A DNA stretch of 64,000 nt, from assembly GCA_046496215.1 (NCBI GenBank), contig JAWOHH010000040.1:27493-91492 (forward strand), in the 5' to 3' direction. The translations under genes and the position numbers were made by a program. Positions within the stretch are counted from its first letter, which is position 1. Every line of letters starts with the position of its first letter. Shown here in pieces: positions 50,158-59,655 of this stretch. The notes under the pieces are model-generated. The model was given only the letters and a program-made list of their open reading frames with translations. It did no database searches and was not told the DNA's origin. The stretch is from Desulfobacterales bacterium (GTDB taxonomy: Bacteria > Desulfobacterota > Desulfobacteria > Desulfobacterales > SpSt-501).

Positions 50158-50361
50158 ATGCCGATCTACGAATACCAGTGCAAGGCCTGCTGTCACTGCT
50201 TTGAAGAGCTCGTCTTTTCCTCCGACGCACCGCCGCCCGTTTGCCCCGAGTGTCGCTGCCCCGATGTGCAGAAGCTCATGTCCGCCGGTTGCGTGAGGGC
50301 GCAAGGCATCCCCACCGGTTCGGGCGGGTTCAAGGCCCCGTCCTGCAAACCCTCGGGGTGA
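50158..50361 (+). CDS. FmdB-family zinc-ribbon protein (67 aa)
   Basis: MPIYEYQCKAC....CPEC signature. Start at ATG 50158 after AAGGGAG. Confidence 0.8.
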   Translation: MPIYEYQCKACCHCFEELVFSSDAPPPVCPECRCPDVQKLMSAGCVRAQGIPTGSGGFKAPSCKPSG

Positions 50362-54186: not shown

Positions 54187-55356
54187 TCAGCGGGCAGATG
54201 CAAACAGAGACTTGAGCCGCATCAGGAGCATCAGGTCGCCCTCGACCTTGTATTTGCCGGCCATGAACGCCTGCTGCCCATCGATCTCCCCGCGGGAGAT
54301 CGCCACCCAGACCTCGGCCGGTGTCTTGATGACGACGGACGGCCGGGAGGCCGGCCCTTCGTGGTAGGTGCAGGAGCCTCCGCCAATCATGAGGTGCGCC
54401 GAAAATTCCTCGCCCCCGCTGACGTCGAACTGGAAGACGGCCTCGAGGTCCCGGGCGGCCTCGGGGTTGAAGCCCCGGGGCATGGCCTGCAGCAGCCCGC
54501 GGCAGGAGTGCGCAGCGGTGGTCGCGGGCTCAGAGGGTTTCGCAGCGGCCGCTGGCTTCCCGGTTCTGCGCTTGGCCTTGTGCTGCGCCATCACCTCCTG
54601 CACCCATGCCTTGCGCATGGCAGGGTCCCACGGGGGCTTCTCCCGCTTTTGTTGAATGTAGGCTTCGAAACCCTTGTCCAGGCCGAGCTTCTCCCAGTGC
54701 GCGTAGTCGTCCCGCATGATCGACTCGCGGTAGTCGCGGACCAGGGCCCCCATGAATTGGTAGAAGCGCAGGTCCAAATCGGTGGCCGGGTAGCGGCGTT
54801 TTTCGCGGATGGCGCGGGCCAGGTCATGGGCGAGATCGGCGGCCCGCGCTTCGATCGCCTCCTTGCCGATGAAATCGCCCGGGGCCGTGGCCAGTGCCGT
54901 GAGCCGCCCGACGGCGAAGGCGCCGTAGACCCGCAGGATGAAGGCCAGGTATTCGGAGACCTGGGTCTCCCCGGAGCCGGCCGAGACGCAGATCGCCAGC
55001 CCCGGCTTCCAGGTCGGCCGCGGCTTGTGGCCGAAGGATAGGCTGCGGTCAAGGAAGGTCTTCATCTGCGCGGTCACGTGGAAGAAGTAAACCGGCGAGG
55101 CGAGGATGATCCCGTCCGCATCCAACAGCCACTGGACGACCCCGGCGTGTTCGTCGGGGATCCAGCACTTCCCCTGGTCGATGCAGAAGGCGCAGCCGGT
55201 GCAGTATTCGATGGCGCAGTCGCTCAGGTTGAGCACATCGAGGGCCACGCCCTCGGAGGCGAGTGTGGGGCGCAGCATTTCGATGAGCAGGCCGGTGTTG
55301 CCGACCCCCGCATGCGGGGAGCCGTTGACGGCGACCACAGTGGTCCGATGGTTCAT
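54187..55356 (-). CDS. Flavodoxin-like iron-sulfur flavoprotein (NADPH-dependent FMN reductase fold) fused to an SCP2 sterol-carrier domain
   Basis: The N-terminus VAVNGSPH...CTGCAFCIDQGKCW...ILASPVYFFHVTAQMK is Isf-like. The C-terminus FQFDVSGGEEF...FMAGKYKVEGDLMLLMRL is SCP2-like. Confidence 0.75.
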   Translation of the reverse strand: MNHRTTVVAVNGSPHAGVGNTGLLIEMLRPTLASEGVALDVLNLSDCAIEYCTGCAFCIDQGKCWIPDEHAGVVQWLLDADGIILASPVYFFHVTAQMKTFLDRSLSFGHKPRPTWKPGLAICVSAGSGETQVSEYLAFILRVYGAFAVGRLTALATAPGDFIGKEAIEARAADLAHDLARAIREKRRYPATDLDLRFYQFMGALVRDYRESIMRDDYAHWEKLGLDKGFEAYIQQKREKPPWDPAMRKAWVQEVMAQHKAKRRTGKPAAAAKPSEPATTAAHSCRGLLQAMPRGFNPEAARDLEAVFQFDVSGGEEFSAHLMIGGGSCTYHEGPASRPSVVIKTPAEVWVAISRGEIDGQQAFMAGKYKVEGDLMLLMRLKSLFASAR

Positions 55357-55390
55357 GGCGTGTTTCTCCTTTCATTGCGATCGCGGGGGG

Positions 55391-56176
55391 TCAATCGAGC
55401 CACGGTTCCCGCTCCTCGATCGAGGGCCGGGGCGTATCTTTGAGATTTTTCATGGCGGCCACCCTGTGCTGGAAGAGCCGATCGACGATGTAGGCGCGGC
55501 ACATGCGGGCGCTTTTGACCATTTGCGTCGTTGCGGCCGCATCCTGGGGATCGGGGAGGGCGCCGGTCATCCGGTTGCGCAGCGCCATCTCCCGATCGAC
55601 GATTTTATCCCCCAGATCGGCGTAATAGGCGAGATCTTGGGCCTGGATCCCCAGCCCGAAGGCATCGCGGAGCATCCGCCCCATCTCGACATCCTCGGGG
55701 TCGTACCGGCCGGCTTCAAGGGGCAGGAGCACCCGTGCCTGAAGCAGCTCTTCCAGCCGGCCTGCGCTAAAGCCGGTTTCGCGGCAGAAGGCCTCGGCGT
55801 CGAGCAGCCGTCGAGGGCTCTCGGGCCCGAAGATCTCCTGGTTCAGTCGGAGATAGACCTTGAGACCGGGCCCTTTTTCCCGGTCTTCCAAAAACCGCTT
55901 GATTTCAGTCAGGGTGAGGCGATGGCGTTCCTGCATCTGCTGGATGAGCCGGATGCGCTCGATGCAGACCGGGTCGTAGTAGGCCATGTTGGGGGACGTT
56001 TTCCTGGGCGCTGGAAAAAGCCCCTGGCCCGCGTAGAAAAGGATGGTCGACTTCGGCAGGCCGGTGGCTTCCATGATTTGATTCATTCGAAGCCCCGCTG
56101 CCGGCCGTTTGGGCGTGTTCGCCACGACAGGCTTATTTCGCGAAACATGACCCGGTCGCGCCTTTTTGTTCTTCAC
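55391..56176 (-). CDS. MerR-family transcriptional regulator
   Basis: HTH IMEATGLPKSTILFYAGQGLFPAP...YYDPVCIERIRLIQ. An alternative start at MNQIMEA is possible. Confidence 0.8.
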   Translation of the reverse strand: MKNKKARPGHVSRNKPVVANTPKRPAAGLRMNQIMEATGLPKSTILFYAGQGLFPAPRKTSPNMAYYDPVCIERIRLIQQMQERHRLTLTEIKRFLEDREKGPGLKVYLRLNQEIFGPESPRRLLDAEAFCRETGFSAGRLEELLQARVLLPLEAGRYDPEDVEMGRMLRDAFGLGIQAQDLAYYADLGDKIVDREMALRNRMTGALPDPQDAAATTQMVKSARMCRAYIVDRLFQHRVAAMKNLKDTPRPSIEEREPWLD

Positions 56177-56524
56177 AAATCGCCTCGAGTCGGCAAGGTT
56201 AAAAAAGCAATGTCGCGTTCAAGCACTAACAAATAAGTTGTATAGTGTCAAGTGTCACTTTTTACTTAATATAAAAGGGGTAGGTTCCGATTTGAGCATC
56301 TCTTGTTGCCGGTCCGATACCTGCAGGCGGTGATAAAAACACCCGCCATCCGGCAAAACGATGGAACTGAGATTTTTCCCATGGGGGAGGGCCACGGATT
56401 TGCGGCGGTTGGTTCTGTATACAAGACGCAGATCGCCCCGCAGGGCGTGGATGAAGAAACCGGCTGCCTTCGAGAAGCAGATTCTTCCTTCAAAAGCCCC
56501 GGTGAGCCACGGTGCGTGATTTGT

Positions 56525-57466
56525 TTACATTCCGCTCGGCTTCTGTGCGGGAAAAGCCGGGGCCAACGCCTCGATGGGCCGGATGATGTCCCGCAGTTTG
56601 GCCGTTGCCGGCGAGTCGGCGATGTGCTGGATGAACGGGCGGCCCTCGTCGCAGCAGACGGCGATCTGGGGGTCGATCGGGATGGAACCCAGAAACGGGA
56701 CGTTCATGTCCAGGGCGATGCGCTGCCCCCCGCCTGCACGGAGAATCGGGGTGAGGGTACCGCAGTGCGGGCAGGCGAAACCGCTCATGTTCTCGACGAC
56801 GCCGATGACCGGCACCTTCAGCTCCCGGCAAAATGTGATGGATTTGCGGACGTCCACCGCCGCCACTTTTTGGGGGGTGGTGACGATCACCGCCCCATCC
56901 ACCTGGCCGATCAACTGGCAGACGGAAAGAGGCTCGTCCCCGGTGCCCGGCGGCGAGTCGACGATCAGGAAGTCGAGATCCCCCCAGGCAACGTCTTTTA
57001 AAAACTGTTTAATGGCCCCCATCTTCAACGGCCCCCGCCAGATGACGGCTTCGTCGGGGTTGCGCAGGAAAAAGCCCAGCGACATGACCTTGAGGCCGTC
57101 GACATCGATGGGGAGCAGCTGTCCCTTATCCCCCTCCGGGCTGCGATTCTCCAACCCCAGCATGGTCGGGATGCTGGGGCCGTGGATGTCCACATCGAGC
57201 AGGCCTGCCCGCTTGCCAGCAAGCCTCAAAGCCACGGCGAGATTGACCGCCACGGTGCTTTTCCCGACCCCGCCCTTGCCGGACATCACCAGGATTTTAC
57301 AACGAATCCGGCACAGCCGCTCCTGGAGCTTGCGCCGGTCCTGGAAATCCTGGTCGCTTTCGCCCGACTGGCGATTGCGGGCGGAGCAGAGGGCGTCTTT
57401 GCACGAGTCGCAGGTGGATTCTTTCGAAGAGAGGCGGTCGGGCGTTTTCCGATTTGGAGTGTTCAC
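56525..57466 (-). CDS. Mrp/NBP35-family Fe-S cluster carrier ATPase
   Basis: Deviant Walker A SGKGGVGKST, a CPHC motif, and an N-terminal CDSCKDALC. Confidence 0.9.
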   Translation of the reverse strand: MNTPNRKTPDRLSSKESTCDSCKDALCSARNRQSGESDQDFQDRRKLQERLCRIRCKILVMSGKGGVGKSTVAVNLAVALRLAGKRAGLLDVDIHGPSIPTMLGLENRSPEGDKGQLLPIDVDGLKVMSLGFFLRNPDEAVIWRGPLKMGAIKQFLKDVAWGDLDFLIVDSPPGTGDEPLSVCQLIGQVDGAVIVTTPQKVAAVDVRKSITFCRELKVPVIGVVENMSGFACPHCGTLTPILRAGGGQRIALDMNVPFLGSIPIDPQIAVCCDEGRPFIQHIADSPATAKLRDIIRPIEALAPAFPAQKPSGM

Positions 57467-57511
57467 GGGTAAAATGTCTCCTGATGATTGGGTGGGTGCG
57501 GATGCGGTATC

Positions 57512-58480
57512 TCAGCCGGAGGCACGTTGGCCGGGGGAGCTTCGCACGGTCTCGTAAAAAACGGATTTTTCGCGCCGCACGGTCACGGCCGCCCCCCGGT
57601 CGCAAAGGTCGGCCAGGCGTTTGGCGCTCTCGTGGATGTGCAGGCCGAGGCCGGCGGCGACGCCCTCAGCCGTGCAGGGCCGGATGCGAATCAACGCGAG
57701 AATGTCCGCATCCGTCACAGAACCCGCGGCCGCCGAAGGCCCGCCGACGAACGCCTCGCTGATCACCTCGGCCGCAGGGTCGAACAACGCGGCCAGGGCC
57801 GCCAGCCGTTCGGGCGGCACCGGACGAGCGCCCTCCTCGCATGGGGGCCGGGAAACCGTGTTCAGCTGGACTTTCGCAGGTCTTATTTTCCGGGTCCAGG
57901 CGGCCAGGCGCTCGACCGCTTCGGGGGTCCCGGTGATGCCCTCCAGCAGGAAAATCTCCAGCCAGACGGGTTTGCGAAACCGCCGCGTGAATTCGGCGAT
58001 TCCGTTCACCATGGCTTCAAATTCGATCTTCGGGTGCGGGCGGTTCACCTGTTGAAATCGCCCGGCATCGCCGGCATCTAGAGACGGCAGCAGCAGGTCC
58101 GCCTCCATCAACGACGCTTGGACGTCTCGCGACCACAACATCGACCCGTTGGTGATCACGGCCACCGGCACGGATGTCATGCGCTTGATGCCTCGGACCA
58201 CCTCCCCGATCCCTGCGTGCAGCGTCGGTTCACCCGATCCGGCCAGGCTCACAAAATCCGGGAGCCGGGGGCTGGCGAGTTTTACCGCCACCTCGGCCAG
58301 CAGATCCTCCACCGGCACGTACGCATCGAGCCGGATGGTCTGGTTCGTGGTGTGGCCCAGCTGGCAGTAAACGCAGTCATAGGTGCAGGTCTTGAACGGC
58401 ACGAGATCCACTCCGAGCGATCGGCCGAGCCGGCGGGAGGCCACCGGGCCGTAAACATATTTGAAACGGGTTGTCGTCAT
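57512..58480 (-). CDS. Radical SAM protein (COG0731-like) with a C-terminal winged-helix-like region
   Basis: YGPVASRRLGRSLGVDLVPFKTCTYDCVYCQ (CxxxCxxC). The start overlaps the upstream stop (ATGA). Confidence 0.85.
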   Translation of the reverse strand: MTTTRFKYVYGPVASRRLGRSLGVDLVPFKTCTYDCVYCQLGHTTNQTIRLDAYVPVEDLLAEVAVKLASPRLPDFVSLAGSGEPTLHAGIGEVVRGIKRMTSVPVAVITNGSMLWSRDVQASLMEADLLLPSLDAGDAGRFQQVNRPHPKIEFEAMVNGIAEFTRRFRKPVWLEIFLLEGITGTPEAVERLAAWTRKIRPAKVQLNTVSRPPCEEGARPVPPERLAALAALFDPAAEVISEAFVGGPSAAAGSVTDADILALIRIRPCTAEGVAAGLGLHIHESAKRLADLCDRGAAVTVRREKSVFYETVRSSPGQRASG

Positions 58481-59040
58481 GGACGCCCGCCGCCCCGCCC
58501 CGTGCCGCGCCCCAGTCCTCTTCCGCGGCCGCTGCCGCCGCCCATGCCACGACCTCCGCCGCCGCCCATGCCGCGGCCGCCGCCGGCCACACCACGGCCG
58601 GTGCCGCGGCCGGTGCCGGCAGCCCCGTCGGCCCGGTTCGGATCTCTCGCAGCGCCTTCTGGCGAAAATGGCCGCGGACCGGATGAGGCGGCGGCCGGGG
58701 GTCGATCGGAACGGGTCGATTCGCCGGTTTTGAAGCGTTCGATCGCCTCACGTGCCGTCCCCGAGCATCCCGACACGATGGCGATTCCGGCCGCCTGCAG
58801 GGCCGTTTGCGCATTGGGGCCGCAGCTGCCGGTCAACAGGTGACTGATGGCCCGGCCGGCCAGCAGTTCGGCCGCCTGGATGCCTGCGCCACCCGGCGCG
58901 GCGCGACCGGCGTTTTCTATCGCTTCCACGCCGAGCGTTTCCGTGTCGACCACCAGGATAAACGGGCACCGTCCAAACCGCGGGTCGATCCGCGAATCCA
59001 GGGAGGGTCCTTCAGCGCTGATGGCCACTTTCATTTTCAT
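58477..59040 (-). CDS. NifB/NifX-family (Nitro_FeMo-Co domain) protein with an Arg/Gly-rich C-terminal tail
   Basis: MKMKVAISAEGPSLDSRIDPRFGRCPFILVVD..GAGIQAAELL, then GTGRGTGRGVAGGGRGMGGGGGRGMGGGSGRGRGLGRGTGRGGGRP. Start at ATG 59040 directly after AAGGAGA. Confidence 0.8.
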   Translation of the reverse strand: MKMKVAISAEGPSLDSRIDPRFGRCPFILVVDTETLGVEAIENAGRAAPGGAGIQAAELLAGRAISHLLTGSCGPNAQTALQAAGIAIVSGCSGTAREAIERFKTGESTRSDRPPAAASSGPRPFSPEGAARDPNRADGAAGTGRGTGRGVAGGGRGMGGGGGRGMGGGSGRGRGLGRGTGRGGGRP

Positions 59041-59479
59041 TCTCCTTTGTCGTGTGCTGCTTACGCTTGGATTGCGAGCGCGAGCGGGCGGGTTCTTTTT
59101 TGCGGATTTCGGGACCAGGTGCAGCAGGGGGTTGCGCACGCTGTGCCCCCGGCATTTGAAAGCAGGCGTCCGAAAGCGTCCCGGCCAAAAATGCCTCCAC
59201 CAGAGCCTCGAGATCTCCGCAGACGAACCCCTTCACTCGGACCCCGGCTCCGATCAGCGCGTTTTCCAGCGTCCGGGAAACCGCCCCACAAAGCACCACC
59301 TCGGCGCCCAGCCTTGCCACTTCCTGCGCCCGCCGGACCGGGTCCAAGCTCGCCAGCCTGAAGTTGTCCCGCCGCCGCTCCCGCCCGCGTTCGATGTCGA
59401 TGACCACGATGGCGTCGGAAGCGTCAAACACCGGTGATACGCGGCCTTGCCAGTGGGGAATCGCGATCTTCATCGCCAT
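59012..59479 (-). CDS. NifB/NifX-family (Nitro_FeMo-Co domain) protein
   Basis: MAMKIAIPHWQGRVSPVFDASDAIVVIDIE...VVLCGAVSR..L..AGVRV, followed by a basic C-terminal tail. Confidence 0.75.
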   Translation of the reverse strand: MAMKIAIPHWQGRVSPVFDASDAIVVIDIERGRERRRDNFRLASLDPVRRAQEVARLGAEVVLCGAVSRTLENALIGAGVRVKGFVCGDLEALVEAFLAGTLSDACFQMPGAQRAQPPAAPGPEIRKKEPARSRSQSKRKQHTTKENENESGHQR

Positions 59480-59488
59480 AGATTTCGA

Positions 59489-59503
59489 GCAAGCATCATG
59501 CCA
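59489..59503 (-). promoter_or_regulatory. Sigma-54 promoter candidate (TGGCAT-N5-TTGC) for the NifX-like/radical SAM/Mrp operon
   Basis: The minus strand reads TGGCATGATGCTTGCT. The -12 C is at 59489, which places the predicted +1 at about 59477-59479, on the first ATG. Confidence 0.5.
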
Positions 59504-59578
59504 AACCTCTTTTTGATTGAAACCCTTATTTCCTTGGCACTTAGACAGCGGGTCGGGTAAAATCCGGTTGACAGTTTA

Positions 59579-59593
59579 ATTGCATGATGCAAT
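59579..59593. promoter_or_regulatory. Palindrome ATTGC-N5-GCAAT (candidate enhancer-binding-protein site)
   Basis: ATTGCATGATGCAAT lies about 85 nt upstream of the minus-strand sigma-54 promoter. The same half-sites recur at 61019-61033. Confidence 0.4.
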
Positions 59594-59655
59594 GCTGGGC
59601 ACAGCAATTTTTGGCATTTCGCACGAATAAAGCTTTTTTTCTGCTTGGGGGCAAG

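Follow-up and report, generated by a model that had tools for sequence, protein, structure and literature searches.

A four-gene operon beside cooS in a Desulfobacterales genome is probably an ORP operon with an additional radical SAM enzyme

Four closely packed genes lie near the gene for a Ni,Fe-carbon monoxide dehydrogenase (CODH; cooS) in a Desulfobacterales bacterium, which raises the question of whether they serve this enzyme, another metalloenzyme, or something else. The genes are located in a stretch of 64,000 nucleotides (nt) of contig JAWOHH010000040.1 (assembly GCA_046496215.1, positions 27,493 to 91,492), referred to here as the window. They encode two NifX-like proteins (X1 and X2), a radical S-adenosylmethionine (SAM) enzyme with a CxxxCxxC motif, and an Mrp/NBP35-type ATPase. 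These domain calls, made in a preliminary description of the window, are correct, with the qualification that the Pfam match of the first gene is below threshold. The same description considered the genes to be a candidate metallocluster-handling module that might build or deliver a cluster for CODH. Our analysis suggests that they very probably constitute an "orp1-type" ORP operon (orp7-like, orp8/ORP, and mrp) plus a radical SAM gene, and that cooS is not its dedicated client. The generic reading, a module for handling metalloclusters, fits the evidence.

Sulfate reducers have been known for two decades to contain the ORP complex, which has been regarded as a curiosity. The ORP/OrpR system has been studied in Desulfovibrio vulgaris Hildenborough, where it corresponds to DVU2103-DVU2109 (PMC6345978, PMC8359166, PMC3897727). 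The complex is encoded by orp3-4-5 and orp7-8-9, positioned around the gene for the sigma-54 activator OrpR (PMC6345978, PMC8359166). The earlier statement that gene sets of this type are functionally unassigned thus holds for the ultimate role but not for the system as such, which these studies had already addressed.

The four open reading frames (ORFs) are tightly packed on the minus strand, as seen from the ORF translations of the window: X1 (59012..59479), X2 (58477..59040, or from the alternative start at 59034), the radical SAM gene (57512..58480), and mrp (56525..57466). The tight coupling proposed earlier is confirmed. X1 and X2 overlap by 29 nt counting from the first ATG of X2 and by 23 nt counting from the second (59034), where the spacing to a GGAG sequence is better than at the first. 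The ATG of the radical SAM gene overlaps the TGA of X2 as ATGA, and mrp begins with a GTG, preceded by an AGGAGA Shine-Dalgarno sequence, 45 nt past the radical SAM stop codon. The true start of X1 is probably its second ATG, at 59473, since the related proteins begin with MKIAI. Downstream of mrp, a gap of approximately 350 nt is followed by an unrelated MerR-family gene, and the operon is therefore taken to end after the fourth gene. A terminator scan in the region downstream of mrp found hairpins no more common than expected by chance. An Rfam scan of positions 55000-64000 (E≤1) gave zero matches and thus no riboswitch, including one of the molybdenum cofactor (Moco) type. The same set of genes recurs syntenically in dozens of genomes across many phyla, which argues that the arrangement goes beyond chance.

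The assignment to the ORP system follows from comparison with sixteen canonical loci, that is, loci from the same phylum that encode an MrpORP above the equivalog cut-off. This cut-off (450) is exceeded in 71 of the 401 genomes of the phylum. The canonical order is OrpR-X1-X2-MrpORP-MinDFd-MinDFd-NifU, and on the basis of this order and of sequence gene 1 corresponds to orp7, gene 2 to orp8, and gene 4 to the N-terminal domain of orp9. Moreover, the matches of X1 and X2 to the MrpORP profile (NF041136) both fall in its C-terminal part. As in the D. vulgaris orp cluster, a system specific to anaerobes, the order is orp7-like, ORP (Orp8), and Mrp-type ATPase, and an activator with a "PAS-Cys-triad" and a GAFTDA loop is positioned between two sigma-54 operons. 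Several features differ from D. vulgaris, however. Here a radical SAM gene is placed between ORP and Mrp; Mrp lacks the fused Di-Nase (NifX-like) domain of MrpORP and carries an N-terminal CxxCx4C extension; and a Gly/Arg tail extends the ORP homologue. The second operon comprises a pilZ-like gene, cooS, a gene for a selenocysteine (Sec)-HdrD-like protein, and one for a NifX-Zn-ribbon protein instead of orp3-orp4-orp5, and the candidate DNA site of the activator is also different.

The activator gene, orpR (59656..61017, plus strand), encodes a PAS-AAA+-HTH sigma-54 activator that, judging from its domains and motifs, is orthologous to OrpR (DVU2106). The Sigma54_activat domain scores 230 bits, and PAS and HTH_8 domains are present. 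The PAS sequence KACCDVFHANICERDC has the form C-x-D-x6-C-x3-C (here C-C-D-x6-C-x3-C), matching the ligands C52, D54, C61, and C65 that hold the redox-sensing [4Fe-4S] cluster of D. vulgaris OrpR (PMC8359166). This motif is common to 33 of the 36 activators in related loci. The loop that contacts sigma-54 is GAFTDA, the variant listed for DVU2106 (PMC4641369), and the activators of canonical MrpORP loci share 52-71% identity with the protein.

Predicted promoters and palindromes on both sides of orpR, conserved in six relatives, are consistent with the proposal in the preliminary description that the four-gene operon and cooS share this activator. The putative promoter of the four-gene operon, TGGCATGATGCTTGC (59489..59503, minus strand), has one mismatch to TGGCAC-N5-TTGC; the second, TGGCATACGCCTTGC (61142..61156, plus strand), is a match of the same type and is predicted to serve the pilZ-like gene and cooS. 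Both flanking promoters have the form TGGCAT-N5-TTGC, and with at most one mismatch to TGGCAC-N5-TTGC there are only four sites in the 64-kb window, two of which are those flanking orpR. Six related loci (L005, L007, L010, L011, L012, and L046) retain the left promoter 14-15 nt before the MKIAI start, and at the right promoter CATGGCAT-N5-TTGC is kept in all six. Exact ATTGC-N5-GCAAT palindromes, which are candidate upstream activating sites for OrpR, occur only twice in the window, about 80-110 nt upstream of the two promoters: ATTGCATGATGCAAT (59579..59593) on the left and ATTGCGGCTTGCAAT (61019..61033), for the right-hand operon. Conservation points to a second candidate site on the left, TCGTGCGAAATGC (~59613-59628). 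In the relatives, a TTGCA-N-TGCA-type sequence is conserved at the left site and TTGCG-N4-TGCAAT at the right site. Hence, the four genes are probably switched on together with the neighboring CO dehydrogenase. At the left promoter, the -12 TTGC element lies 14-15 nt before the X1 start, with no Shine-Dalgarno sequence, in seven loci (59473-59503 in the window), and a leaderless or near-leaderless mRNA is therefore predicted.

X1 is an Orp7-like NifX-fold protein with a basic C-terminal tail, assigned by family and position. It scores 23.6 bits against Pfam Nitro_FeMo-Co, under the gathering score of 26.3. Its family is nevertheless sharply defined, with members in 52 of 81 related loci and a single near-invariant Cys, which lies within LCGAxS (98%). 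In the canonical MrpORP loci, X1 is the positional equivalent of orp7. It adjoins OrpR in 24 of 36 loci, and since its gene is found within 600 nt of the same proportion of OrpR-type activators (24/36), OrpR and X1 may be a functional pair, whatever the cargo.

X2 is the ORP (Orp8) homologue. It scores 79.5 bits against PF02579 (Nitro_FeMo-Co), and its best match in the PDB is 2WFB, the ORP of D. gigas (phmmer E 2.2e-22; X2 residues 3-108 aligned to ORP 5-112). The IPR003731 domain comprises residues 1-110 and is followed by a Pro-rich linker and a tail. The "RGG tail" noted in the preliminary description is real: its 46 amino acids (aa) include nine Arg and zero acidic residues (+9). Comparable Gly/Arg tails are present on X2 in L010 and L046, both without a separate DUF5320 gene. 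Two near-identical 24-nt repeats lying side by side (GGRGMGGG twice; 58477-58620) encode part of the tail.

This architecture raises the possibility that X2 is a protein of the IssA/IssX type and that the operon stores and mobilizes inorganic Fe-S (thioferrate-like) or thiometallate polyanions instead of taking part in enzyme maturation. In the thioferrate storage protein IssA of Pyrococcus furiosus, an IPR003731 domain precedes a Pro-rich segment and a Gly-rich, cationic tail, and the ligand is the anionic thioferrate (PMC5524996). X2 appears to be built in the same way, with a predicted disordered tail, and the absence of any conserved Cys in the X2 family agrees with such a role. The same applies to the anionic Mo-Cu-S cluster that D. 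gigas ORP holds non-covalently, as cited in PMC6345978. However, just three of the 54 X2 family members carry a Gly/Arg tail, the tail of X2 is without the aromatic residues of the IssA tail, and the X2 domain is closest in sequence to D. gigas ORP and not to MTH1175/IssA-type proteins. The operon context, with radical SAM, Mrp, and OrpR, also differs from that of IssA, and storage leaves the radical SAM enzyme unexplained. Storage as the function of the operon is, on balance, rather unlikely.

The fourth gene encodes an Mrp/NBP35-type Fe-S carrier ATPase (PF10609, 337.6 bits) that shows the hallmarks of the Mrp/NBP35 subfamily: a deviant Walker A motif, GKGGVGKS (consensus GKGGhGK[ST]), and a conserved CXXC motif, CPHC. 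It aligns to the MrpORP profile NF041136 with 385.6 bits over positions 2-249 of 365. As in Mrp, ApbC, Nbp35, and Cfd1, GKGGVGKS is combined with a C-terminal CxxC for a bridging [4Fe-4S] cluster, and the N-terminal Cys cluster recalls Nbp35. Unlike in those systems, the gene is predicted to serve the ORP genes exclusively and to be transcribed with them. The housekeeping job probably falls to a second Mrp paralogue of plain type, which is encoded on contig C156 and is 51% identical. The N terminus (57300-57466) contains C-x2-C-x4-C and a downstream Cys, resembling the N-terminal cluster site of Nbp35. Of the 41 cluster-linked Mrp proteins, 30 contain the CxxCx4C motif, which is absent from both the C156 paralogue and the MrpORP profile.

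The radical SAM enzyme belongs to an uncharacterized subfamily (PF04055, 50 bits). In the AF2 model (pLDDT 88.6) the radical SAM core, with the motif C32-x3-C36-x2-C39, is followed by a classic C-terminal winged helix. No NCBIfam family comes near its cut-off, and a sequence search of the PDB revealed no relative (best E 0.017). Identities with TYW1, MoaA, PflA, and viperin were rejected, as the corresponding NCBIfam models all score far under their cut-offs. Foldseek returns PFL-AE, NifB, TYW1, and viperin alike (TM ~0.55, identity <20%), and all of these are generic radical SAM cores that point to no particular functional class. The family is very large, with more than 7,800 homologues and an identity of about 60% across phyla. 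The 80 genomic homologues closest to it are spread over Syntrophales/Smithella, Acidobacteriota, Aminicenantes, NC10, Bacteroidota, Lentisphaerae, Verrucomicrobiota, Planctomycetota, and others. Their common neighborhood consists of OrpR, X1, DUF5320, X2, TrmO_N, DUF89, two ferredoxin-MinD proteins, an FmdB-type zinc ribbon, the radical SAM enzyme, SAM methyltransferases, NifU_N, Mrp, a further NifX-like gene, MBL, and CoADR-rhodanese. For 45 radical SAM loci, 4 kb or more of flanking sequence was available on both sides, and 40 of these contain three or more ORP core families. In L100 and L105, a canonical fused MrpORP immediately follows the radical SAM gene. By their genomic context, these data identify the radical SAM enzyme as a genuine and frequent accessory member of ORP clusters. 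We found no description of such a member in the ORP literature that was consulted.

The gene immediately before the radical SAM gene encodes, in 37 of 81 loci (L006-L081), a zinc-ribbon protein of the FmdB type. This protein has a conserved Cys-rich tail, C-x-x-E-x-x-G-x-T-C-C-G-x4-C-x4-C-G-D, and could be a substrate or a metal-binding partner. The compact clusters are without the FmdB-type gene, and the FmdB gene elsewhere in the window (50158-50361) encodes a different tail.

NifB unites a radical SAM domain and a NifX-like domain in one protein; here these parts come from separate, translationally coupled genes. Together they could therefore represent a "split NifB", in which the radical SAM enzyme and the NifX-fold proteins synthesize a carbide-type or heterometal cluster, similar to the nitrogenase cofactor, for another enzyme. 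The combination is shared with NifB, NifX, and NafY, whose fold holds complex clusters non-covalently. In the structural comparison NifB (6y1x) is the second-best match (E 4.5e-11), and the larger cluster relatives additionally contain NifU-like and Mrp scaffolds. The Foldseek scores are, however, equal for PFL-AE, TYW1, and viperin, and there is no match to the NifB NCBIfam family (TIGR01290). In 43 radical SAM sequences, the only invariant Cys are C32, C36, C39, and C269, the last in a C-terminal RRPCT motif. One invariant Cys beyond the SAM-cluster triad means that ligands for NifB-type K1 and K2 clusters are missing, and on these grounds the enzyme was rejected as NifB-like. As noted in the preliminary description, no nif genes are present in the window; nifH is in addition absent from the whole genome, which is estimated to be 100% complete. 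It exceeds the cut-off in just nine of 51 cluster-bearing genomes, leaving 42 without it. Synthesis of a cofactor-like cluster by these genes is improbable.

A further alternative is that the radical SAM gene has a housekeeping function, e.g., in tRNA or cofactor modification, as its COG0731 label would have it, and merely sits between the orp genes. Distant homologues (~40% identity, E≤1e-50) are encoded in 239 of the 401 genomes of the phylum and are often unlinked in genomes with a canonical MrpORP (e.g., G434, G336, and G120). The JGI name, "wyosine synthetase" (COG0731), would point in the same direction, but this label was rejected: TIGR03972 (TYW1) gives 23.4 bits against a cut-off of 317.95, and TYW1 entries in the PDB give E values of 0.59-0.68. 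Moreover, wyosine is not known as a bacterial modification. The nearly universal ORP context of the 80 closest homologues, which extends across phyla, and the ATGA coupling to X2 make a bystander gene very improbable.

The relation to cooS remains to be discussed. The right-hand operon contains, in order, a pilZ-like gene (61206..61709, plus strand), cooS (61742..63772, plus strand), an HdrD-like gene, and a gene for a NifX-like protein with a zinc ribbon. The cooS product, the catalytic subunit of Ni,Fe-CODH, scores 614.6 bits against TIGR01702 (cut-off 478). The small PilZ-like protein has homologues at the matching position in L005, L007, L010, L011, and L012. It has no Pfam match at E<0.01 and scores just 15.9 bits against TIGR02266; its assignment to PilZ is based on the RxxxR and N-x-S-x-x-G motifs alone. 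The position of cooS is conserved in L005, L007, and L010. In contrast, the close relatives L011 and L012 keep both the left and the right operon, the latter without cooS, and the gene driven by the second promoter in L046 is an orp gene of the DUF5320 type. For this reason, cooS looks like cargo that was inserted into an OrpR-controlled slot in one sub-lineage.

The HdrD-like gene extends from window position 63899 past the end of the window (contig C64:91391-92710) and consists of two ORFs of 243 and 193 aa separated by an in-frame TGA. L007, L010, and L011 have the same TGA context (FLNTE-TGA-GHVTFSVLEGL). If the TGA is read as Sec or Cys, a product of 439 aa results, of which residues 72-399 align in one piece to HmcF, TmcB, and DsrK. 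It is probably a selenocysteine enzyme co-transcribed with cooS.

The preliminary description suggested that the module builds or delivers a cluster for CODH, in view of the adjacent cooS and the absence of a visible cooC, and named occurrence of the operon independently of CODH in most genomes as the finding that would refute this. Such independent occurrence is what is observed. Counted at the TIGR01702 cut-off among genomes that carry the radical SAM/ORP cluster, cooS is present in 17 of 50 and absent from 33, including a closed 3.2-Mb chromosome (G013). Only three of 80 loci have it at a distance of up to 8 kb from the radical SAM gene. In D. vulgaris, cooS and cooC (DVU2098/2099) are located a few kb away from the orp genes; within ±8 kb of the 16 canonical MrpORP loci, no cooS was seen. 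The module is thus not dedicated to CODH or, given the nifH counts above, to nitrogenase. The absence of cooC itself is borne out: none is found in the window or, by tblastn with Mrp and ferredoxin-MinD queries, in the genome, where the only P-loop matches are two Mrp genes, two ferredoxin-MinD genes, and genes of the ParA/FlhG and tyrosine-kinase types.

The strongest form of this idea is that the module is a dedicated system for maturation or delivery of the C-cluster of the adjacent Ni,Fe-CODH and replaces the missing CooC. Besides the adjacency of cooS, probably under the same activator, and the lack of a cooC-like gene, it draws on the fact that all five compact four-gene genomes that were checked (the window's own, G002, G004, G005, and G027) encode cooS. 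Similar to the accessory proteins CooC, CooT, and CooJ, Mrp is encoded near cooS, and it is, moreover, a SIMIBI-class P-loop ATPase. However, it is not a homologue of CooC, it does not co-occur with cooS across genomes, and it has the Fe-S-type CPHC and not the Ni-binding CxC motif of CooC. In D. vulgaris, the OrpR regulon comprises the orp operons only (PMC8359166). With these differences, the distribution of cooS, and the L011 and L012 operons that are kept without it, a dedicated CODH system is highly improbable.

Some observations weigh against the assignment to the ORP system or limit its reach. The Mrp protein is below the equivalog cut-off and, lacking the fused Di-Nase domain, is not a two-domain MrpORP; no full-length MrpORP is encoded anywhere in the genome of the window. 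Genes for the ferredoxin-MinD proteins Orp3 and Orp4, MinD-type ATPases into which a 2x[4Fe-4S] ferredoxin is inserted, are absent from the locus and are instead found on contig C49 under another activator. The operator of D. vulgaris OrpR, GGGCGYRTTTTGCGCCC, has no match near the locus with up to three mismatches, and the ATTGC-N5-GCAAT palindromes are found where it would be expected. The relatives used for comparison are all metagenome-assembled genomes, and the distant homologues of the radical SAM enzyme are sometimes unlinked to orp genes. For the complex in Desulfovibrio itself, only a cell-division and morphology phenotype has been reported. Finally, there is a small residual probability that the module gives some help to CODH, because the compact variants checked all have cooS and no cooC-like gene was detected.

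The genes on contig C49 (19978-22922) form an orp2-like set that comprises a DUF134-NifX fusion, two ferredoxin-inserted MinD ATPases, a NifX-like gene, and a different sigma-54 activator. The ORP parts are thus split over at least two loci in this genome.

With the four genes assigned to the ORP system, a mechanism can be outlined from its characterized members. In D. vulgaris, OrpR switches on the orp operons via its PAS [4Fe-4S] cluster when the redox potential is low, and only then (PMC8359166); aconitase and Orp3-Orp4-Orp8 receive Fe-S clusters from MrpORP in vitro (PMC6345978). By orthology with OrpR, low redox potential would allow, through the PAS [4Fe-4S] cluster, the AAA+ domain to open the flanking sigma-54 promoters. 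In analogy to MrpORP, an Mrp dimer would then assemble a bridging [4Fe-4S] cluster on its CPHC motif and hand it to apoproteins, which may include the radical SAM enzyme, the ferredoxin-MinD ATPases encoded on C49, and possibly Fe-S enzymes of the neighboring operon. As suggested by D. gigas ORP and IssA, X1 and X2 could hold a labile anionic metal-sulfide non-covalently with help from the +9 tail, which might substitute for the separate DUF5320 protein of the larger clusters. The radical SAM enzyme would modify a component or the cargo of the complex, or a partner protein. In this model, cooS would be co-expressed, under strongly reducing conditions, with the Sec-HdrD-like enzyme and a third NifX-fold protein.

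A broader version of this model, which we regard as doubtful, is that the OrpR-gated ORP module is a general machine of anaerobes. It would make or hold an anionic metal-sulfide for whichever low-potential metalloenzyme is encoded in the second OrpR operon, here the CooC-less Ni,Fe-CODH together with the selenocysteine HdrD-like enzyme. In this scenario, the radical SAM enzyme would carry out an undescribed step on the cargo or on a Cys-rich partner.

The locus probably belongs to the published, partly characterized ORP system, and what is new here is the radical SAM insertion, the unfused Mrp, and the tailed ORP. The ORP core (OrpR, Orp7-like, ORP, and Mrp) travels across many phyla with one highly conserved radical SAM enzyme (50-60% identity between phyla). 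Missing at the published Desulfovibrio locus, this enzyme offers a concrete enzymatic handle on ORP function. Moreover, OrpR-type switches appear to drive different cargo operons depending on the lineage (here cooS and the Sec-HdrD-like gene), and this suggests a general "deep anoxia" regulator and not one limited to orp genes. With respect to annotation, the label "wyosine synthetase" on the radical SAM enzyme is misleading and is corrected here, and the data speak against labeling modules of this kind as maturation genes for CODH or nitrogenase.

In addition to orpR, the genome contains two near-identical copies of an OrpR paralogue (58% identity) with the motif CFEVLRADVCETGC, on contigs C162 (3524-7446) and C145 (31220-35826). 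Each is accompanied by a divergent X1-like gene, behind which come genes for a protein of 92 aa, a polytopic membrane protein of 470 aa, and an MBL-fold protein with a TAT signal.

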